Below are positions 10,739 through 32,003 of a stretch of DNA of 51,828 nucleotides, in pieces. Location: positions 74,047-125,874 of the forward strand of contig JBIIJY010000002.1 in the NCBI GenBank assembly GCA_044233485.1. The letters run 5' to 3'. The DNA is from Minisyncoccia bacterium (lineage in GTDB: Bacteria; Patescibacteriota; Minisyncoccia; Phycocordibacterales; UBA6065). The stretch's first letter is position 1. Every line of letters begins with the position of its first letter. The notes below the pieces were generated by a model. It made no database searches. It was not told the DNA's origin and was given only the letters and a program-made list of their open reading frames with translations. Position numbers and translations under genes: made by a program.

Positions 10739-10936
10739 AGAACGTACGAAGGTACATTCTTGAAGTATGGAACAAAGTGAGCCACTTCCCAGGATCTTTC
10801 CCGCGACTCAAAACTCGCCGTCGCTCGTTTTGGTCTGGGCACCGCCTCGCTATTTTTCGAAGCGAAAAATATAGCTCCGGCGTTCAAGCCTGGACAGAAT
10901 GTACGAAGGTACATTCTTGAAGCATGGAACAAAGTG
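10739..10936 (-). other. tRNA-Thr-linked structured element, class A. Contains the antisense T-loop segment, conserved core and distal duplicate of the tRNA 3' end plus trailer. The proximal repeat copy (10896-10950) extends 14 nt into the tRNA gene, beyond this feature's end
   Basis: 55-bp direct repeat, 10739-10793 vs 10896-10950 (2 mismatches). GTTCAAGCCTGG at 10882-10893 is inverted relative to 10946-10957. Core 10800-10837 is identical to 17247-17284. Confidence 0.8.
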
Positions 10937-17223: not shown

Positions 17224-17401
17224 TTTTGCGCGCCCGACCGGACTTGCCCGCGACTCAAAACTCGCCGTCGCTCGTTTTGGTCTGTACCACAGGAGTACTT
17301 CTAGTTTGATAAATCAAACTATGTCGAGCACCGCCTCGCTATGTTTCGGAGCGAAACATATAGCTCCGGCGTTCAAGTCCGAAAAACACTTCGTATTTTT
17401 G
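17222..17401 (-). other. tRNA-Asp-linked structured element, class A. Contains the antisense T-arm segment, conserved core with an extra hairpin, and distal duplicate of the tRNA 3' end. The proximal repeat copy (17395-17419) extends 18 nt into the tRNA gene, beyond this feature's end
   Basis: 25-bp direct repeat, 17222-17246 = 17395-17419. GTTCAAGTCCG at 17371-17381 is inverted relative to 17412-17422. Core blocks 17247-17284 and 17329-17377 match the Thr copy 38/38 and 46/49. Confidence 0.8.
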
Positions 17402-26477: not shown

Positions 26478-26602
26478 ATACCGCTACTCTACTACACTCT
26501 AGAAACGGCATGTATAGAATATTTTTTCAAAAAATGGTAAAGTTTTGTCTGTGCAAGAGAGGCGCCTGATTTCTTTTGTACTCTGGAGAGCCTCATATAC
26601 AG

Positions 26603-26694
26603 GGAGACGTGGCTGAGCTGGCCGAAAGCGCCTCATTGCTAACGAGGTATCCCGCCTTAAAACGGGATCGGGGGTTCGAATCCCCCCGTCTCCG
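26603..26694 (+). tRNA. tRNA-Ser (anticodon GCU), class II with a long variable arm
   Basis: GGAGACG TG GCTG..AGC G CCTCA TTGCTAA CGAGG TATCCCGCCTTAAAACGGGATC GGGGG TTCGAAT CCCCC CGTCTCC G. There is an A31:C39 mismatch in my fold. No encoded CCA. Confidence 0.8.
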
Positions 26695-26846
26695 CAGGAG
26701 AAAATGTAACAGCGTTACATTTTAGAGAAAGCTCTAGGAGAGCTTTCGTGGGGGATTCGAAAACCTTTTGCGTATAATTTGCAATTTCCTGAGGTAAATT
26801 ATCCAAAAGGTGTACTGATCCTGTAAGGATCGAATCCCCAGGCACC
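26695..26846 (+). other. tRNA-Ser(GCU)-linked structured element, class B
   Basis: Hairpins at 26701-26723 and 26727-26747. GGGGGATTCGAA at 26750-26761 is the exact reverse complement of T-loop/3' T-stem 26675-26686. Nested hairpin 26764-26810. CGAATCCCC at 26831-26839 is a degenerate second copy of the tRNA 3' end. Confidence 0.7.
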
Positions 26847-26869
26847 TTTCTTCCCTATCAAAATACATT

Positions 26870-26956
26870 GGAGGCGTGGATGAGTGGTTTAAATCAACGG
26901 TTTACTAAACCGTCGTTCCTTTACCGGAACCGTGAGTTCGAATCTCACCGCCTCCG
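26870..26956 (+). tRNA. Class II tRNA, Ser-type (G73, long variable arm). My fold puts ACU at positions 34-36
   Basis: GGAGGCG TG GAT..ATC A ACGGT TTACTAA ACCGT CGTTCCTTTACCGGAACC GTGAG TTCGAAT CTCAC CGCCTCC G. The 5-bp anticodon stem is perfect. The anticodon call needs tRNAscan-SE. Confidence 0.7.
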
Positions 26957-27131
26957 CATAATAATGAGCTTGCGAATATATTTTGCGTGAGGTGAGAAAG
27001 TGCTGGGAGCACTTTCGTGTGAGATTCGAAAGACGGAATAAAAATTTTGAGCTCAAAATTTTATGAGTCGGGGTCGCGAGCTCCGAGTTGCAACGAGGAG
27101 ACTTGTGACCGAATCTCCTACCGCCTCCGCA
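26957..27131 (+). other. tRNA-Ser-linked structured element, class B
   Basis: Hairpin 26996-27016. GTGAGATTCGAA at 27019-27030 is the exact reverse complement of 26937-26948. 22-nt palindrome at 27041-27062. CGAATCTC at 27110-27117 plus ACCGCCTCCGCA at 27120-27131 (identical to 26947-26958). Confidence 0.75.
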
Positions 27132-27181
27132 CTTGATACTTTTTATCGGATGACCCTGAGGCCTCGATAAAGAGATATCGT

Positions 27182-27218
27182 CAAAACCCCGCAAAGGATC
27201 ATCCTCGGCGGGGTTTTG
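27182..27218. terminator. Bidirectional rho-independent terminator between the tRNA-Ser locus (+) and the orphan operon (-)
   Basis: CAAAACCCCGC-(15 nt)-GCGGGGTTTTG. Confidence 0.7.
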
Positions 27219-27220
27219 CT

Positions 27221-27961
27221 TTACATGTGGTTCAAAAGACTTTTCTCTTTAATTTCTTTTATACCCTTTGGTAACAGATGGTAAAAACCGTCTTTAAGAG
27301 CGATCAGTTTTTTGGAGACCATGGAAGAGACAGTCTTACTAAATCGAGTCTTGTTGTCATCCTTTGTTTTGGAGAAAAGAAAGTCGAAGTCACGCTTTTC
27401 AGCTGATGAAAGCACCAGTATCTCTTGTCTCACGGTGAGGTCATCTCTTGCGATGAATTCCTCACCTTCAATATCAAAGATAACTGGATAGTTAGGGATA
27501 GCAATCCTGTCTATTATCTTTTGAGCCTCATCCATTGTGTAATTGCCGTAGACACGGATGAACTCGGCGAATATCCAATTTGCGCAAGAGAGAACAAAAC
27601 TTGCATCAATTTTATTTGCATTGAAGTTGCCGAGATGCGCGACGTCACGATTGTTTCTGAAATCAAGGAGTAGTTTTGTTAGTGATGTTACTTTCTGACG
27701 GATGTGCTCGTCGATATTGGCATCGTTTGTGACTTTATTGATAATCGTCGTTTTATCTGCCGCTTTGATGTCTTCACCGAAGGGTGTAATTGGCGTGCTC
27801 AGTAAATGTTGAAAGATACGTAGTACAGCTTCTGCAAATCTGCCACCATTCAATTGAGCCGGTCCACAATCATTCAATTGGAACCGACGCTTTATCTCGG
27901 TGTATTCCTCAAGAAGCTTATCCTCAAGGTTATCAGGAATGGTCGTAAGAATTCTTGTCAT
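27221..27961 (-). CDS. Hypothetical protein with a HEPN-like Rx6H motif (Abi_C/AbiJ-HEPN-like) and a C-terminal winged-helix-like region
   Basis: All-helical N-terminal part with LLLDFRNNRDVAHLGN (R102-H109). C-terminus FSKTVSSMVSKKLIALKDGFYHLLPKG. Last gene of a tightly overlapping four-gene operon. Confidence 0.4.
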   Translation of the reverse strand: MTRILTTIPDNLEDKLLEEYTEIKRRFQLNDCGPAQLNGGRFAEAVLRIFQHLLSTPITPFGEDIKAADKTTIINKVTNDANIDEHIRQKVTSLTKLLLDFRNNRDVAHLGNFNANKIDASFVLSCANWIFAEFIRVYGNYTMDEAQKIIDRIAIPNYPVIFDIEGEEFIARDDLTVRQEILVLSSAEKRDFDFLFSKTKDDNKTRFSKTVSSMVSKKLIALKDGFYHLLPKGIKEIKEKSLLNHM

Positions 27962-28355
27962 GTTTTTTAAAGATGTCCTTCCAATGCTTGCCTAGGATAT
28001 AAGATGCCCGAGTCTCTTTGGATGAATCAACCCAGCCATTTTCCTTCGCACGAGTTGAAAAGGTAGAAGCATAAGGAACACCAATCATCCCAGAGCAGCT
28101 TTTCCAAACAGATTTAATTCGTAGGAGGTCTACCGGCACATCTTCTTTTCCTTTAGCCAGATACGCTGATATAAGGGTGAAGAATTCTTGCCCATTAAAT
28201 CCAGACGAGTATTTTTTGATAAACGCTCTTTCGTTGAGAGAAAAATCTAAACCTGATGCACCAGCAGTGACTGTCGAGGCAACGACACTTTTGGCGAATA
28301 CAGCCTTCTCAAGTTTCTCCAATCTTTCTTTGATTTCAGTAATTTCTTTTTCCAT
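27933..28355 (-). CDS. Hypothetical protein (N-terminal coiled coil)
   Basis: 140-aa ORF, MEKEITEIKERLEKLEKAVF... It overlaps the downstream gene by 29 nt. No family recognised. Confidence 0.5.
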   Translation of the reverse strand: MEKEITEIKERLEKLEKAVFAKSVVASTVTAGASGLDFSLNERAFIKKYSSGFNGQEFFTLISAYLAKGKEDVPVDLLRIKSVWKSCSGMIGVPYASTFSTRAKENGWVDSSKETRASYILGKHWKDIFKKHDKNSYDHS

Positions 28356-28360
28356 AGTAT

Positions 28361-28702
28361 TTATTTTCTCTTAGAATAGACCCATTTCTTAGGAGTTCCA
28401 TCACGTTCCAATATTTGTTTCGGTGGCTTTACTAGATTCAAGAGATTCATCGATACAGATGTGTTCTTGAAAGATGTTTGACCTCGCTTTTTTAATTTAT
28501 CCATAATCTGAGGCATACCCTTAGGCTCATCAAAGAAACCCTCTCCCACAAGTTCCTGAATAGCCCCAATACAGTTGGTTGCCTTTTTTGTACTACTCTT
28601 AGTAACATACTTTTGAATCGGAGCTGTCCCAGCGGGAGCTCCCTCAAGTTCATTCAGCAATGCTCTTATTTGAGCGACAATTTCATTAGTCGTTTTTTTC
28701 AT
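28361..28702 (-). CDS. Hypothetical protein
   Basis: I chose the ATG at 28702 (MKKTTNEIVAQIRALLNELEG...). The longer track start at 28771 would overlap the upstream gene by 86 nt. No family recognised. Confidence 0.45.
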   Translation of the reverse strand: MKKTTNEIVAQIRALLNELEGAPAGTAPIQKYVTKSSTKKATNCIGAIQELVGEGFFDEPKGMPQIMDKLKKRGQTSFKNTSVSMNLLNLVKPPKQILERDGTPKKWVYSKRK

Positions 28703-29102
28703 GGTTGTTGAGAATATTCTTAGTCTTGATTTTCGAGACTTGATAGCTGGTAATGTAGTAACCTGTGTCATCAGAAGTCACCAGGCTACCTCCCTTGGTT
28801 TCTTTTAGAAGCTTAAGTGTCGGGAGTACGCTTCCTTTTGATATACCGGTTTCTTCAATAATATCTTTCGGCTTAACTCGATCCGTTTCGATTTCACCTA
28901 AAAGAAACAGAGCTTTTTTCCCCAAGAGGAAAAGGACGATTCTATTCTTGAGTGATTGCTTTAGAGTGGAATCAAGAAAGATTATGTTCTTACTCGTCTT
29001 GTTAATTTTAATAAATGGAGACAGGAGATCAAAAAGCTCGGTGGCGTTTATATCATTGTCGTCCGTAAACAGTTGCTTCAAAACTTCGTGTTTATCAGTC
29101 AT
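28686..29102 (-). CDS. Hypothetical protein with a winged-helix-like segment
   Basis: IIEETGISKGSVLPTLKLLKETKGGSLVTSDDTGYYIT resembles a MarR/ArsR-type wHTH. First gene of the operon. Confidence 0.45.
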   Translation of the reverse strand: MTDKHEVLKQLFTDDNDINATELFDLLSPFIKINKTSKNIIFLDSTLKQSLKNRIVLFLLGKKALFLLGEIETDRVKPKDIIEETGISKGSVLPTLKLLKETKGGSLVTSDDTGYYITSYQVSKIKTKNILNNHEKND

Positions 29103-29576
29103 GTGTATATGGGTTAATTAATAATTTCAATCGCTCGCTACAGCGGGAGGTTGATTTGAAAAGATTATAGCATAGGTCAAAGATTATTTGCAAGTACTTG
29201 AAGTAAATACTATTTTTATAATGGTGATATTTGCTCGAATTTATAGGGTTTTGGTGTCATATTGAGCATTGCTGTTCCTTTACTAAACATAATCATTTTT
29301 ATATCTATCCTATTATGTCCTTTAAAATAAGGAGATTATCAATATAATAAAGATTGTAAAACTGTCTATTTATAAAGAAACATATATTGATTATCAATAT
29401 CTTTAATCAAAATAGCCATAATACCTATGTTTATAAGGGCTTTTAGAGGGTATCTAAATTTTCTTATAATCAATAGTGTTCTTTCATATCTGAAACCTAC
29501 TTATTTAAAGTACTAAAAAACACCCTATTTTGGCTATAAAATGATCCCAAACATGTAAAAAGCTCTGTTTCTAAGA

Positions 29577-29837
29577 TTATATCACTCTTGTTTCTATCGT
29601 TACTACCTTTGCAGTCACCTTTATCTTCGATTTGAAGCACCCCATTAGCTCACGTTTCTCCTCGTTTGAACCGTCCATGAGGATGTACTTGGCGTAAGTC
29701 TTCAGGTCGATTTCCTTATGTGTTCCTCCTGACTTGCTCATGCCAAGCACTCCTCGGTTGAATTTGTTGTATCGCTTAAGCTCTTCGTTGAACTTGATCT
29801 GTATGCCAGTCTGGTAATAAAACAACATCTTTTGCAT
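29577..29837 (-). CDS. Small hypothetical protein. The start is uncertain; it may be the shifted C-terminus of the upstream orphan
   Basis: 86-aa ORF overlapping the upstream ORF by 62 nt. Alternative ATG at 29741 (MSKSGGTHKEIDL...). Confidence 0.35.
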   Translation of the reverse strand: MQKMLFYYQTGIQIKFNEELKRYNKFNRGVLGMSKSGGTHKEIDLKTYAKYILMDGSNEEKRELMGCFKSKIKVTAKVVTIETRVI

Positions 29838-30954
29838 AAACAGTAATTAATCCAATTTGGTTTATACCAAAGTGGATTAATCCCCATCGAGTAAAACCAA
29901 TCCCTCCGGTATCTTTTGTGTACCAAGACAAACTTGTTTCTTTGTTAGCTAAAATGGAATTAACTACTTCAGGTTTGAACCACAAGTATTTTCCACTATC
30001 AATCAGGTTTTTAGCTTTTTCTTTGCTCCCAGCGGCATCAACAATGTACGAATACTCTTCGTGCGCTTCATCATTTAAAATAATAGAACTCTTTAGTGCA
30101 GGAAAAACAAAATCATTTTTCCACACTTCTCCTTCAATCCTGTAAAGTTTTTTTCCTTTAAAACCTCGAATCCAATTTTTACTTTCAACATTTGTTTCGT
30201 TAGTTGAAAATGGATACTCTGGGACATCCTCATTAAAGTCAATATTTGTTCTACCTACATGAAATATAGCCATTTTCTCACCAAATCTATGACTACTGCC
30301 CTCATGTATTGGCCACATCCTACCACTCCACTTTATTCCATCTTTATTATCAATAATCTTTTCTAATTCCCAGTCAACTTTTATTTCGTTCTCCAAGACT
30401 TCAGTCCTAGACTTGTAGGAAGAAATAAATAAAATTCTATCTCTCACACATAGATAGTCTTTTAAGTAGTTCAATCTAATTAAAATCTCATCAACGCATC
30501 CATTCTGATTTTTATGTAACTTTATTACTTCCTCATGTCCTCTATTGTATGCAAACCAATTATCGTTCTCTTGAACCAATTCAAGCGTTGAAAGTAAGTC
30601 TGGGCTAATATACCAATTGTTACAATACTCACCGCCAATTTCATGGGCAATTATTAAATTTTCACCCTCTATTCCATCACATTCAAAATAATGTGCTGGT
30701 TTATACTCATCCTCGTAAGGATTTCCTTTATGTCCTCTGATCAATCCGACATCTATCCACTCTAATTTTTTTGCTTTTTCAGCATCCTCCTTTTTAATCA
30801 AAATGCTTGTGGAACCAAAATATTCTTCTTTAAAGCCTAAACAGCCATATTCACCTTCGCTTATGTATTTTCTTGAAGATCTCAAGGGTACCCAGACTTG
30901 CTTATCCGCTTTTTGATCAATGTAGTCTTTCAGTTCAAACCACTCTTTTTGCAT
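29776..30954 (-). CDS. Orphan 392-aa protein, no recognisable motif, low GC
   Basis: Long ORF in AT-rich DNA. The N-terminal 46 codons of the track ORF overlap the VOC gene, so I chose the ATG at 30954 (MQKEWFELKDY...). The ATG at 30981 is an alternative. Confidence 0.55.
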   Translation of the reverse strand: MQKEWFELKDYIDQKADKQVWVPLRSSRKYISEGEYGCLGFKEEYFGSTSILIKKEDAEKAKKLEWIDVGLIRGHKGNPYEDEYKPAHYFECDGIEGENLIIAHEIGGEYCNNWYISPDLLSTLELVQENDNWFAYNRGHEEVIKLHKNQNGCVDEILIRLNYLKDYLCVRDRILFISSYKSRTEVLENEIKVDWELEKIIDNKDGIKWSGRMWPIHEGSSHRFGEKMAIFHVGRTNIDFNEDVPEYPFSTNETNVESKNWIRGFKGKKLYRIEGEVWKNDFVFPALKSSIILNDEAHEEYSYIVDAAGSKEKAKNLIDSGKYLWFKPEVVNSILANKETSLSWYTKDTGGIGFTRWGLIHFGINQIGLITVYAKDVVLLPDWHTDQVQRRA

Positions 30955-30959
30955 AGTAA

Positions 30960-31352
30960 TTAGGTTGTTATCCTCGTACATATCTCCAACAAGAATCCAT
31001 TTATGTCGCGGAGGTAGCCGACGGTTTGACCCCAAGGCTTTTGAGTTGGCTCTTTTACTATTTCCGCTCCCGCTTCGACCGCTTGTTTCCATGCACTTTC
31101 AATATCATCTGCCACAAAGGTAATTTCAAAAGGTGAAGGTAATTCTTGTGAGTATCGCCTTTCAATAGCGATGCCGTTGTATTCAGCAACACTGTATGAG
31201 GCAAAGGCAAGAGTGGTACCACCGGTTTCAAGCTCGCCGTAGTCTTTTTCTGGAGTGATGAATTTTTGTGCAATGCCAAAAGCCTTCACATAAAACGCGA
31301 GTGTCGCTTCGACATTTTCTACATATAAAATTGTGTATCCGTATTTGATCAT
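30960..31352 (-). CDS. VOC (glyoxalase/bleomycin-resistance/dioxygenase) family protein
   Basis: MIKYGYTILYVENVEATLAFYVKAFG...KPWGQTVGYLRDINGFLLEI. Confidence 0.75.
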   Translation of the reverse strand: MIKYGYTILYVENVEATLAFYVKAFGIAQKFITPEKDYGELETGGTTLAFASYSVAEYNGIAIERRYSQELPSPFEITFVADDIESAWKQAVEAGAEIVKEPTQKPWGQTVGYLRDINGFLLEICTRITT

Positions 31353-31356
31353 ATAT

Positions 31357-31791
31357 TTACACCGTAAAATTAAAATGATTCACCGACACCTCTTCACCTC
31401 CAAGTGCGCGATAAAATGCGACCGCACCACCATCCTCAGATTCGGCTTCTACAAAAATTGTTTCTATGCCTCTCTTTTTAGCTTCTAGCTTGAGGTGTTC
31501 TATGAGAGCTTTGCCGAGTCCTTGCTTTTGGTATTCTGGGTGGACGGCTATGTCATAGATAAAAAATTCTTTCGTGCCATGAATGGGCATCATCTCCATA
31601 GCAACAAGCCCGCCAACGATTTTGGTATCTATAAATGCGCCGAGTATAAGAGTCTTGTCATCTTCTAACATCTTCGATAGATATTCATCCGTGACGCTGT
31701 ACTCTTGCTCAAAGGTGAGAGCAAAGACTGATACAAGTGCCTTTACATCACTGAGACTATGTATTTTTTGTATATCTGCTCGCTCTTTCAT
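31357..31791 (-). CDS. GNAT N-acetyltransferase (AAC(3)-I-like layout)
   Basis: FFIYDIAVHPEYQKQGLGKALIEHLKLEAKKRGIETIFVEAESEDGGAVAFYRALG. Confidence 0.65.
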   Translation of the reverse strand: MKERADIQKIHSLSDVKALVSVFALTFEQEYSVTDEYLSKMLEDDKTLILGAFIDTKIVGGLVAMEMMPIHGTKEFFIYDIAVHPEYQKQGLGKALIEHLKLEAKKRGIETIFVEAESEDGGAVAFYRALGGEEVSVNHFNFTV

Positions 31792-31793
31792 AA

Positions 31794-32003
31794 TTACTTC
31801 AAAAGTTGATCTACGCTCACTCCAAGCACTTTGGCGACCTTTTCTATTGTGCTAAGTGTAAGATTTTGTTTGCCGTTCTCAACATTACTGATATACGCTC
31901 GATCTAACCCTAACTCTCGGCAAATGTCGCCTTGCGACATACCTTTCTCAGTGCGTATCTTTTTCATGTTCTCGCCAAATTTTTGTGCTGTTGATTTTGC
32001 CAT
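31794..32003 (-). CDS. XRE-family helix-turn-helix transcriptional regulator
   Basis: KIRTEKGMSQGDICRELGLDRAYISNVENGKQNLTLSTIEKVAKVLGV. I chose the ATG at 32003 to avoid overlap with the upstream gene. Confidence 0.8.
   Translation of the reverse strand: MAKSTAQKFGENMKKIRTEKGMSQGDICRELGLDRAYISNVENGKQNLTLSTIEKVAKVLGVSVDQLLK

Follow-up and report, generated by a model that had tools for sequence, protein, structure and literature searches.

Element E2, which lies within the 175 bases 3' of the second tRNA-Ser gene of the window (the whole stretch of 51,828 nucleotides analysed here), is one copy of a large, phylum-wide Patescibacteria (CPR bacteria) family of non-coding units at the 3' ends of tRNA genes. 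It is an ordinary member of that family and not a peculiarity of the tRNA-Ser locus. The fold of the units is strongly supported by covariation, and their antisense and sense pieces match the neighbouring tRNA. The best explanation, held with middling confidence, is that a unit is a non-autonomous insertion element of guide-plus-hairpin type, likely a small parasite, whose insertion point lies just 3' of a sequence to which its guide is complementary. The family appears not to have been described before; no account of such tRNA-linked elements in Patescibacteria was found in the literature.

Parts of the element and its neighbours in the window

The tRNA-Ser(ACU) gene was called by both ARAGORN and the Rfam tRNA model (57.1 bits), and E2 matches the covariance model of the family over its full length (53.9 bits, E 3.8e-10). 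Its minimum free energy fold reaches -66.2 kcal/mol (z = -6.1), the lowest of the z-scores of the four window units, which run from -2.9 to -6.1. The locus is made up as follows:

26870..26958, + strand: tRNA-Ser(ACU), including the CA after discriminator G26956; left flank and presumed target of E2
26959..27131, + strand: element E2, whole; H1-type 5' half plus B2-type 3' module
26959..26984, + strand: spacer TAATAATGAGCTTGCGAATATATTTT, from alignment
26985..26994, + strand: anti-acceptor stretch GCGTGAGGTG, from the fold and duplex energies
26995..27017, + strand: hairpin H1, AGAAAG-TGC-TGGGA-GCA-CTTTCG, conserved hallmark of the family
27019..27030, + strand: anti-T-arm stretch GTGAGATTCGAA, exact reverse complement of 26937-26948
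27031..27073, + strand: module B2, first stem AGACGGA ... GAGTCGGGG, from the fold; encloses a variable hairpin
27072..27110, + strand: module B2, second stem GGTCGCGAG ... CTTGTGACC, from the fold; two G-U pairs, encloses CTCC...GGAG
27110..27131, + strand: terminal direct tRNA-tail copy, CGAATCTC (27110-27117), CT, ACCGCCTCCGCA (27120-27131)

The pieces on which a preliminary description of the locus had rested are all in place. The core of H1, GAAAGTGCT-GGG-AGCACTTTC (26996-27016), stands between the flanks GAGAAAG...CTTTCGTG that E2 has in common with E1 (26725-26750), and the motif occurs exactly twice in the window, where shuffles expect 0. The exact antisense of the T-arm is likewise present, its target TTCGAATCTCAC (26937-26948) comprising the T-loop plus the 3' strand of the T-stem, and the anti-acceptor stretch forms a duplex containing one G-U pair with the acceptor 3' strand CGCCTC(C)GC both of the tRNA (-15.6 kcal/mol) and of the element's own terminal copy (-15.5 kcal/mol). 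That copy spans the 3' part of the T-loop, the 3' strands of T-stem and acceptor, G73 and CA, and is distinguished from the tRNA tail by a 2-nt insertion, CT, at 27118-27119. Its 12-nt end, the duplicate noticed earlier, equals 26947-26958 and has no further copy in the 51.8 kb (0.09 expected allowing one mismatch). The 22-nt (11+11) palindrome at 27041-27062 also exists, as the hairpin enclosed by the first B2 stem; it is one version of a variable stem-loop and not a conserved signature. The same first-stem frame encloses other hairpins in L041, L051, L101 and L146 (L-numbers denote related loci compared with the window); L041 keeps the outer part of the second stem with another inner hairpin, and in L047 this outer stem covaries.

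A terminator-like hairpin (27182-27218) lies 51 nt downstream of E2, in agreement with the distance of about 50 nt given before, while the HEPN-like operon that it was said to close found no support in Pfam, NCBIfam or PADLOC. The region 3' of E2 is a low-GC accessory region.

An assembly artefact joining two tRNA-Ser alleles had been named as what might undo these observations. Positions 26478-27260 agree base for base among three assemblies of independent origin, two from SRA runs and one from a JGI metagenome, and therefore E2 is not a mis-assembly. Together with the zero matches in shuffles and the more than 100 homologous copies in other genomes, this identity refutes chance similarity as well, and the probability of either is negligible.

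All four tRNAs of the window have such an element behind them. The other three are:

26697..26852, + strand: E1, B1 type, behind tRNA-Ser(GCU); covariance-model match of 123.8 bits
17225..17400, - strand: class A element behind tRNA-Asp; anti-T stretch GGACTTGAAC, 25-nt tail copy
10775..10935, - strand: class A element behind tRNA-Thr; anti-T stretch CAGGCTTGAAC

E1 (fold z = -5.2) consists of a spacer hairpin, H1, an anti-T stretch, a long AT-rich hairpin, GTGTACTG, a GATCC-TGTAA-GGATC hairpin and a degenerate tail copy. What E1 and E2 have in common is the 5' half only (H1 and the anti-T stretch), and their 3' modules are unlike. The two had been treated as a single scaffold, class B; this must be given up, H1 and its antisense stretches being joined to at least two 3' modules, B1 in E1 and B2 in E2. 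An identical 38-nt block is common to the tRNA-Thr and tRNA-Asp units, which differ in their tRNA-specific parts, and in the tRNA-Thr unit the tRNA tail plus a trailer hairpin form a 56-nt direct repeat. The earlier statement that scaffolds are shared while antisense and sense pieces are customised to the adjoining tRNA is supported.

A phylum-wide family with a covarying fold

In 524 kb from 72 loci the covariance model identifies 116 units, of which 63 stand behind a tRNA on the same strand and 15 behind another unit, 78 together, and the tRNAs served have 22 different anticodons. The H1 motif was present in 80/80 genome loci returned, about 63 of the 80 being in Patescibacteria. From 5' to 3' a unit comprises a spacer, often a terminator-like hairpin, an anti-acceptor stretch, H1, an anti-T-arm stretch, an exchangeable module and a tRNA-tail copy. 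Its left edge appears to lie directly after the N73-C(C)A of the tRNA, its polarity is that of the tRNA-sense strand, and its last 17-22 nt are its own copy of the tRNA tail, with the same N73-CA end. The 3' module is one of a few exchangeable structured types, of which at least B1 and B2 combine with H1 and its antisense stretches; B2 is related to the class A module. The insert is non-coding and 160-175 nt long.

Compensatory changes are seen at each of the 25 pairs of the model, and across the 116 units 96.7% of cells are paired; the corresponding figure for the 9 pairs of H1, every one with compensatory changes, is 99.5%. The compensatory changes in H1 first seen between E1 and E2 are thus upheld with many copies, the first variable pair being CG in 51, UA in 37, GC in 7 and AU in 2 of the 116 units, and the second UA in 42, GC in 39, AU in 8 and CG in 3. 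G-U plus U-G pairs total 120, far above the 21 A-C plus C-A, and therefore the tRNA-sense strand is the structured one. The loop and junction sequences UGGGA, GUACUG and UGUAA are conserved across classes of the phylum.

No Rfam 15 family matches a unit at or near its gathering score, and ARAGORN and Rfam (at the gathering score, and with E up to 10) return from the window only the four true tRNAs and no unit. A hammerhead or other known self-cleaving ribozyme was considered and rejected: GUACUG...UGUAA...CGAA misfits the hammerhead core, and Rfam gave nothing.

Matching of units to their tRNAs

An antisense stretch and/or a tail copy is found downstream of 72/119 tRNAs of the related loci and upstream of 1/119, and the anti-T arrangement of E2 recurs at 56/119 (upstream control, 1/119). 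H1 has the anti-acceptor stretch directly on its 5' side, and the next stem likewise has the anti-T stretch; both stretches are complementary to the upstream tRNA tail. These stretches pair with the upstream sequence at least as well as with the unit's own terminal copy, the mean duplex energy of the anti-T stretch being -16.1 kcal/mol with the former vs -11.1 kcal/mol with the latter.

These pairings are also the starting point of the main rival explanation, which we consider possible though rather unlikely, namely that the unit is a trailer RNA useful to the host, whose transcription accompanies or directly follows that of its tRNA. The anti-acceptor and anti-T stretches would pair with the tail copy to form an acceptor/T-stem-like helix, a mimic of the upper half of a tRNA in which H1 replaces the D and anticodon arms; excision by RNase P or RNase Z is conceivable, and the RNA might serve in tRNA maturation, in quality control or in protection, one example being a decoy for nucleases or enzymes directed at tRNA. 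The fold of E2 closes via exactly these pairings, the covariation is strong, strand-specific and rich in G-U as in functional RNAs, the three loop and junction sequences are kept across the classes of the phylum, and each match is specific to its tRNA. However, many copies, among them E1 and those truncated in L015 and L022, lack the acceptor-like pairing or have it disrupted, and terminal copies are often degenerate. Many spacers, moreover, resemble terminators set before the unit, no conserved promoter precedes H1, and about 40% of the tRNAs in unit-rich genomes are without a unit.

Turnover at tRNA 3' ends

The accessory nature of the units is clearest at tRNA-Ser(ACU) itself: 39/45 metagenomic loci of this tRNA have no unit, and units are therefore dispensable. 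In L084 both tRNAs are 100% identical to those of the window, yet the intervening unit is of another type, the divergence starting exactly after ...CCGCA. The spacer of E2 is homologous to spacers behind another tRNA-Ser, tRNA-Ser(CGA), in L011 and L069, where it occurs with retuned antisense stretches, and to that of a truncated E2 relic in L125. Tandem arrays of unlike units occur in L028, L041, L046, L057 and L077, and two identical units stand in tandem in L048. In L133, the tRNA 3' end and trailer correspond to the terminal copy of E2 and its flank, as deletion between direct repeats predicts. A dedicated processing RNA would not be expected to show arrays, relics, orphans away from tRNAs or swaps between near-identical strains, and these, with the empty tRNA-Ser(ACU) loci, argue against the trailer RNA.

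The orphan units indicate which copy belongs to the element. Their left flanks differ from the cognate tRNA tail by 3-6 mismatches in 16, the match lying mainly in the last 8-10 nt next to the junction, while the terminal copy agrees well with the cognate tail (0-2 mismatches) in 4/5 cases. Therefore the right-hand copy is the element's own and the left flank a look-alike target. These orphans, in which the right-hand copy is the good one, also disfavour a reading prompted by the fact that identity between tRNA and terminal copy begins at T-loop position 60 (28 units), namely that the element inserts into the T-loop and itself supplies a new tRNA tail. The apparent left boundary exactly after N73-CA, the tandem arrays, the orphans beside pseudo-sites and the L133 deletion all fit the earlier suggestion that the tRNA tail is an attachment or insertion site.

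Such a site could also have been used by a classical integrase, the units then being scars of islands, plasmids or phages that integrated into the tRNA 3' end (attL, attR) and were later reduced to about 150 nt. Like the repeats of many tRNA-targeting integrases, the tail repeats begin in the T-loop; tRNA 3' ends are synteny break points, for example in L108 vs L111; and a low-GC accessory region lies behind E2. However, more than 100 copies that keep one fold of 130-180 nt, with covariation at 25 pairs, are not what random deletion would leave; att sites of this kind give the antisense stretches no role; and no integrase is present in the window or adjoining units. Nor is there a third copy of the tail in the window, which also removes the possibility of a larger island bounded by tRNA-Ser tails. 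The H1 motif is without a match in 2.9 million viral contigs (IMG/VR), on which ground a phage or plasmid origin was rejected. Scars of this kind are thus largely refuted by the conserved structure and very improbable.

Proposed insertion by a built-in guide

In the preferred explanation, that of a non-autonomous insertion element, the unit in single-stranded form, either ssDNA of the tRNA-sense strand or RNA of that polarity, would fold, and its antisense stretches, both situated at the 5' foot of a hairpin, would together make up a built-in guide. Pairing of the guide with the last ~10-20 nt of the tRNA gene would set the insertion point just 3' of it, and pairing with the unit's own terminal copy would set the right-hand boundary. 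The enzyme would have to act in trans, none being encoded in the window. The unit ends in target sequence, and therefore each insertion would recreate the target, which would explain the tandem arrays.

Several observations stand against this explanation. No transposase of any kind is tied to the units and no autonomous, ORF-bearing unit was found; specifically, no Y1 HUH transposase was detected among about 60 ORFs of the window and 103 ORFs flanking units, and no recombinase in the window or among the same 103 ORFs. The hairpins near the two ends, H1 and the TGTAA hairpin, are unlike each other. Among 49 tRNA-Ser(ACU) loci, no filled and empty site that share a conserved downstream flank could be cleanly paired. 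Two of the window units lie on each replication strand, and the window thus gives no strand bias of the kind seen with ssDNA transposons. Orthologous units in species pairs are 86-90% conserved vs 74-76% for adjoining coding DNA, a pattern more in keeping with a function for the host or with frequent refreshment than with a decaying parasite, and one that counts in favour of the trailer RNA. The explanation also leaves out how guide and tail copy come to match a new tRNA.

A wider formulation, which we put forward only tentatively, is that the units represent a new nucleic-acid-guided RNA or ssDNA, in which a guide of 10-22 nt, split round H1, recognises the 3' end of one tRNA together with a partner protein of Patescibacteria, and which either inserts DNA by tRNA genes or acts on the tRNAs.

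Interaction with IS110-family elements

A transposase between the left part and the tail copy of the unit in L073 had given rise to the idea that units are ORF-less deletion derivatives of an IS110 element. This sole ORF-bearing case is an independent IS110-family element nested inside the unit; it brings conserved ends (ACGTTGTGAACC... and ...GGTTCATAGTTG) and a 3' non-coding guide region of its own. Thirteen further copies of it were retrieved for comparison; elements of the L073 type also occur in unrelated contexts (L090-L092, L094, L095/L097), and within units the IS110-family insertion point is always one spot, between GTACTG and the TGTAA hairpin (L073, L085/L086, L089, L093). From its own ends, unrelated contexts and single spot it follows that the units are a target of the IS and not its remnant, and the derivative idea was abandoned. 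IS110-family insertion sequences use the units as landing sites, much as IS621 targets REP sequences; like REP sequences, the units are many structured intergenic copies that serve as IS110-family insertion sites.

This interaction bears on a further alternative, in which the unit is a satellite that encodes nothing except a bridge RNA, the antisense stretches being its right-hand guides, and an IS110-type DEDD recombinase supplied in trans recombines the circular unit into the tRNA gene. Recombinases of the IS110 family are common in the organisms that carry units, with 1650 homologues below E = 1e-10 whose source names include Taylorbacteria, Kaiserbacteria and Paceibacterota, and their elements interact physically with units as insertion sites. 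Bridge RNAs measure 150-250 nt and have segments matched to target and donor (PMC11208160), and a small-RNA module that hitch-hikes on an IS110 transposase is known in ssr9 of ISPpu9 (PMC12288879). Yet in IS621 the left flank is recognised by a guide of sense polarity, pairing with the bottom strand (PMC11208160), and the Patescibacteria IS follows this rule, the stretch directly after its stop codon copying the left flank, whereas the left-flank stretches of the units are antisense. Furthermore, the units are without the IS ends, no second guide pair matching the unit's own ends was found, and no recombinase gene adjoins any of about 115 units, the nested IS in L073 excepted; tblastn with the L073 recombinase against all loci and the window returned L073 itself only. 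The bridge-RNA satellite is therefore improbable.

Relation to known systems

The ends of IS200/IS605 elements, as in IS608, are organised as a flanking cleavage site, a linker, a guide of 4-5 nt and a hairpin, with the two end hairpins similar to each other; PATEs are ORF-less derivatives of IS200/IS605, and REP elements are mobilised by RAYT, these being Y1 HUH enzymes. The units resemble IS200/IS605 in having their structure on one strand only, in apparently lying directly 3' of a specific sequence without the usual transposon-type duplication, in matching the flank with a same-strand internal stretch at the 5' foot of a hairpin, which would recognise it, in having as right end a defined sequence 3' of another hairpin, and in short non-coding copies far outnumbering any autonomous copy. 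They differ in the putative guide, which is 10-22 nt and split round the hairpin; in target and right end being the same sequence, the tail of a particular tRNA; and in the dissimilarity of H1 (9-bp stem, loop TGGGA) and the right-hand hairpin (5-bp stem, loop TGTAA), B2 and class A differing again. No Y1 transposase is linked to them, and their modules are larger and more elaborate than those of PATE or REP elements. Unlike MITEs, the units have no terminal inverted repeats, and their direct repeat is not fixed in length (22 nt with an indel in E2, 25 nt at tRNA-Asp, 56 nt at tRNA-Thr).

With the bridge RNA (seekRNA) of IS110/IS1111 elements (PMC11208160, PMC11208158) the units share the character of a structured non-coding unit, here of 130-180 nt, with short segments that match the insertion site and the end of the element itself, and IS110/IS1111 systems are present in the same genomes. 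The bridge RNA has as its 5'-side guide a sense copy of left flank and core, and as its 3'-side guide an antisense of the right flank (PMC11208160); the left-flank stretch of the units is, by contrast, antisense, and adjacent recombinase and two-loop target/donor layout are both missing.

As in tRNA-targeting integrative elements, a direct repeat from T-loop to 3' end stands on both sides, the tRNA gene is left intact and inserts can stack in tandem; what sets the units apart is their size of about 150 nt, the lack of an integrase, the internal inverted copy of the att segment and the conserved fold. Finally, tRNA-like RNAs (the tmRNA domain, YrlA, viral tRNA-like RNAs and mascRNA) also have ends that pair into an acceptor/T-stem-like helix ending in a discriminator plus C(C)A. 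In the units, however, the mimicry is customised to the neighbouring tRNA, no T- or D-loop equivalent occupies the usual place, pairing in the acceptor is in many cases imperfect or missing, and tRNA models miss them.

Implications

If the insertion-element explanation is true, a small element that homes by base pairing is present at most tRNA genes of a phylum with tiny genomes, and its guide can be retuned from one tRNA to another. To our knowledge, that guide would be several times longer than in any known hairpin-guided transposon. The units would add a new natural programmable targeting module to the IS200/IS605 guides, the omega RNAs of TnpB/IscB and the IS110 bridge RNAs, and would imply a partner enzyme yet to be named; the use of units by IS110-family elements as safe landing pads would then be explained as a second-order interaction. 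If instead the trailer RNA were correct, the units would constitute a new class of tRNA-specific companion RNAs. Units mark synteny break points, and since they yield partial tRNA copies and chimeric tRNAs, as in L133, they can mislead tRNA annotation in metagenome-assembled genomes.

The element downstream of tRNA-Ser(ACU)

Directly 3' of tRNA-Ser(ACU) lies a structured element, E2 (26959-27131, +), for which the hairpin, antisense T-arm, palindrome, CGAATCTC and 12-nt duplicate of the preliminary description were all confirmed; a related element, E1 (26697-26852, +), follows tRNA-Ser(GCU).

Features of E2 and its tRNA gene (positions in the window; source in brackets, the region reading covering 26700-27400)
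26870-26957 (+), tRNA-Ser, anticodon ACU
26996-27016, hairpin inside GAGAAAG...CTTTCGTG (region reading and repeat scan)
27019-27030, antisense T-loop/T-stem, 12-nt exact inverted copy matching 26937-26948 (repeat scan)
27041-27062, palindrome, 11+11 (repeat scan)
27110-27117, CGAATCTC (region reading and repeat scan)
27120-27131, terminal 12-nt exact direct copy matching 26947-26958 (repeat scan)

Two copies of the hairpin frame are present in the window, one behind each tRNA-Ser gene, and none in shuffles; the terminal 12-mer is confined to its two places there. Each of the window's four tRNAs (Thr, Asp, Ser-GCU and Ser-ACU) has such an element behind it on its own strand. Mis-assembly, which had been named as one of the outcomes that would undo these observations, is excluded because the region is identical throughout in three assemblies obtained independently from the same population, and the chance that the elements are an artefact is negligible.

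A family of tRNA-tail-matched repeats

Scanning one genome per species for the motif AGAAAGNNCTNGGAGNNCTTTCG gave at least 80 loci, and among the matches listed about 63 were from Patescibacteria (Saccharibacteria, Paceibacteria, Taylorbacteria, Nomurabacteria and others). In these listed patescibacterial matches an antisense T-loop such as GGATTCGAA stands directly 3' of the motif, and the tRNAs upstream of it in the loci listed bear 22 different anticodons. A covariance model derived from 22 units, as single copies of the repeat are called here, recognized 116 units in 524 kb, E1 (123.8 bits) and E2 (53.9 bits, E 3.8e-10) included; 63 lie at most 120 nt behind a same-strand tRNA, 15 behind another unit and 10 at locus edges. 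By a class-independent test, an antisense T-arm and/or tail copy was present downstream of 72 of 119 tRNAs, compared with 1 of 119 in the upstream control. Rfam 15 held no matching family, 2.9 million viral contigs had no occurrence of the AGAAAGNNCTNGGAGNNCTTTCG-type motif, and a literature search for such tRNA-linked elements yielded no description. E2 belongs to a widespread family of structured repeats matched to tRNA tails. The preliminary interpretation was right for the most part, though too local.

Comparison of units gives a common 5' to 3' order: the tRNA ending in N73-C(C)A; a spacer, often with a terminator-like hairpin; the complement of the acceptor 3' strand; a conserved hairpin, H1; the complement of the T-stem 3' strand and T-loop; a module that is exchangeable between units; and a copy of the tRNA tail terminating in N73-CA. 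The 22-nt palindrome is present but is no hallmark of the family: it is the form which the variable first hairpin of module B2 takes in E2.

Types of 3' module (L numbers denote loci fetched from other genomes and metagenome contigs)
B1, in E1 and most copies: RVCCnnTTGAG, AT-rich hairpin, CCAAnnGG, GTACTG, hairpin with loop TGTAA
B2, in E2, L041, L047, L051, L101 and L146: AGACGGAG, hairpin, CGAGTCGGGGTCGCGAG, hairpin, ACTTGTGACC
Class A, in the window's Thr and Asp elements, L008, L028, L057 and L077: without H1; AGAC...GAGTCGNGGG frame in common with B2

After the discriminator, 89 of 123 tRNA genes (L001-L080 and the window) have CA instead of CCA, which is encoded in 14 only, and tRNA-Ser(ACU) loci without a unit have CC in about half of cases and CA in the other half. 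N73-CA is therefore a general trait of these genomes and not a by-product of the units. Three of 103 ORFs adjoining units belong to the CCA-adding enzyme/poly(A) polymerase family (PolyA_pol, tRNA_NucTran2_2 and HD domains), probably as orthologous loci rather than through a functional link.

Structure and strand

Standard pairs make up 96.7% of cells in the 116-unit alignment; the figure is 71% for shuffles and does not exceed 56% when partners are slid. The covariation first proposed for the hairpin held up with more copies: compensatory changes occur in all 25 pairs of this alignment, which was fitted to the model, and already in 16 of 25 in an unfitted MAFFT alignment of 22 units. From the excess of G-U plus U-G over A-C plus C-A (120 versus 21) it was concluded that the tRNA-sense strand is under selection in single-stranded form, either RNA or ssDNA. 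E2 alone folds at -66.2 kcal/mol (z = -6.1), the fold being closed by pairing of the anti-acceptor and anti-T stretches with the terminal copy. Because covariation of the tRNA-matched pieces is expected under any model where both derive from the same tRNA, the independent evidence of a selected fold consists of H1 and the module stems only.

Turnover, retuning and a proposed insertion mechanism

On one strand, the units present left-flank sequence, a linker, a complementary stretch directly 5' of a hairpin, and a right end that finishes in the left-flank sequence. IS200/IS605-type ends, as in IS608, follow this logic. The likeness favours, with confidence evenly divided, the reading that a unit may be a non-autonomous, guide-plus-hairpin insertion element, which would land 3' of a sequence that its guide (the anti-acceptor and anti-T stretches) can pair with and would regenerate the target sequence at its own end. 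The putative targeting principle is similar to that of known hairpin-guided transposons, but the guide is much longer and tRNA-specific. In orphan units, away from any tRNA, the left "tail" is poor (3-6 mismatches in 16, best match in the last 8-10 nt) and the terminal copy good (0-2 mismatches), which argues that the latter belongs to the element and the former is a look-alike target. An origin of the units as integrase scars is very improbable.

The insertion-element reading has weak points: the hairpins at the two ends are unlike each other, it lacks an explanation of how a unit is retuned to a new tRNA, orthologous copies are well conserved, and neither an enzyme linked to the units nor a clean empty/filled site pair was found. 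In three species pairs orthologous units are 86-90% identical and flanking genes 74-76%, which counts against a purely decaying parasite. A host-useful tRNA-trailer RNA, mimicking the acceptor/T-stem half of its tRNA, is conceivable if unlikely. The unit is dispensable: tRNA-Ser(ACU) was found in 49 metagenome contigs, 45 of them with enough flank, and 39 of the 45 have no unit.

Turnover is evident at several loci. L084 resembles the window in a neighbouring protein (83% identical) and both tRNAs (100%), but the unit between its two tRNA-Ser genes is of a different type, divergence starting exactly after ...CCGCA. Unlike units are arrayed behind single tRNAs in L028, L041, L046, L057 and L077; L048 has two identical copies. 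The E2 spacer is found again behind tRNA-Ser(CGA) in L011 and L069, where the guides have been retuned to match this other tRNA, and L125 retains of E2 only the spacer, anti-acceptor stretch and H1. In L133 the tRNA-Ser(ACU) is chimeric, its 3' end and trailer matching the E2 terminal copy and following sequence, CT insertion included, as expected of deletion between direct repeats. Its T-stem and acceptor are mismatched, and relative to it tRNA-Ser(GCU) and the 5' part of an E1-like unit (L133:101-436) are inverted compared with the window; rearrangements seem to be driven by the tRNA-tail repeats, both inverted and direct. At least five contigs (L117, L118, L122, L137, L143) have a different conserved sequence of ~200 nt after tRNA-Ser(ACU), AAAATTGAAAATCGGAATYGGAAGC...GGTTCGA...TTCGAACCGAC, which could represent a further tRNA-linked element or else the end of a convergent gene that is conserved.

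Relationship to IS110-family elements

At L073:3832-5330(-) a 351-aa IS110-family recombinase (DEDD_Tnp_IS110 4.5e-19, Transposase_20 8.5e-24) lies between a unit's left part and its tail copy. The IS110/IS1111-like family with this 351-aa recombinase is large in Patescibacteria, many copies being on ~1.4-kb contigs, and 13 further copies (L085-L097) were compared. The L073-type IS is an independent insertion sequence that has ends of its own, subterminal inverted repeats and, on its 3' side, ~215 nt of conserved non-coding sequence. Directly after its stop codon the left flank is copied (TGTACCGCC in L093, AGAACTG in L094 and L095, GGTACTG in L073), a sense copy like the left guide of bridge-RNA systems (PMC11208160). 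That the units are bridge-RNA-only satellites of IS110 recombinases is improbable, the polarity of their guides being wrong and none of their ends matching.

In four independent loci the IS is inserted into a B1 unit, precisely between GTACTG and the TGTAA hairpin; in three others it lies elsewhere. Together with its own ends, this recurrent position argues that B1 units are a preferred target of the IS, as REP sequences are for IS621. Units as remnants of the IS were ruled out, since it has its own ends and inserts at one site in units as well as elsewhere.

Genomic surroundings and unusual tRNA genes

The window represents ordinary patescibacterial (CPR) chromosome: it has genes for RNase P RNA, PheRS, EF-Ts, S2, RF, pilins, glycosyltransferases and ribonucleotide reductase, and neither a transposase nor an integrase nor a reverse transcriptase was found in it. 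A strong bidirectional terminator-like hairpin (CAAAACCCCGC...GCGGGGTTTTG, 27182-27218) lies 51 nt downstream of E2, and 3 nt separate it from the stop codon of a convergent ORF (27221-27961). The stretch next to E2 on its 3' side, 27200-32000, at 36-38% GC versus ~46% elsewhere, looks like accessory DNA, with small ORFs lacking a family match and GNAT, glyoxalase and HTH genes. The label "HEPN-like" given to ORFs beside E2 found no backing, there being no HEPN signal in Pfam, NCBIfam or PADLOC; weak, sub-threshold matches in the stretch were L7Ae-like (0.019), a CARF-like model (0.0053) and winged-helix WH_III-A (0.0018).

The tRNA-Thr and tRNA-Asp elements share an identical 38-nt block (10800-10837(-) and 17247-17284(-)), and over another ~43 nt the only differences are one compensatory pair and one loop base, suggesting recent copying or gene conversion across the 6.4 kb that separates the two loci; the Asp element additionally contains a 43-nt insert bearing a hairpin of its own.

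tRNA-Ser(ACU) has A at position 34 and adjoins a normal tRNA-Ser(GCU), which already reads AGY. It is also present in L040 and L098-L146, and its anticodon arm and variable-arm start recur in 49 metagenome contigs with varied acceptor stems, arguing that the gene is conserved and not a pseudogene. L076 has a tRNA-Asp(AUC), and in L023 and L052 ARAGORN reads a tRNA as anticodon UUA ("Stop"). The anticodon loop of tRNA-Asp is interrupted by a ~250-nt insert, presumably a group I intron, in L017 (~1850-2156) and L020 (1-330); ARAGORN missed both genes, and a unit still follows them.
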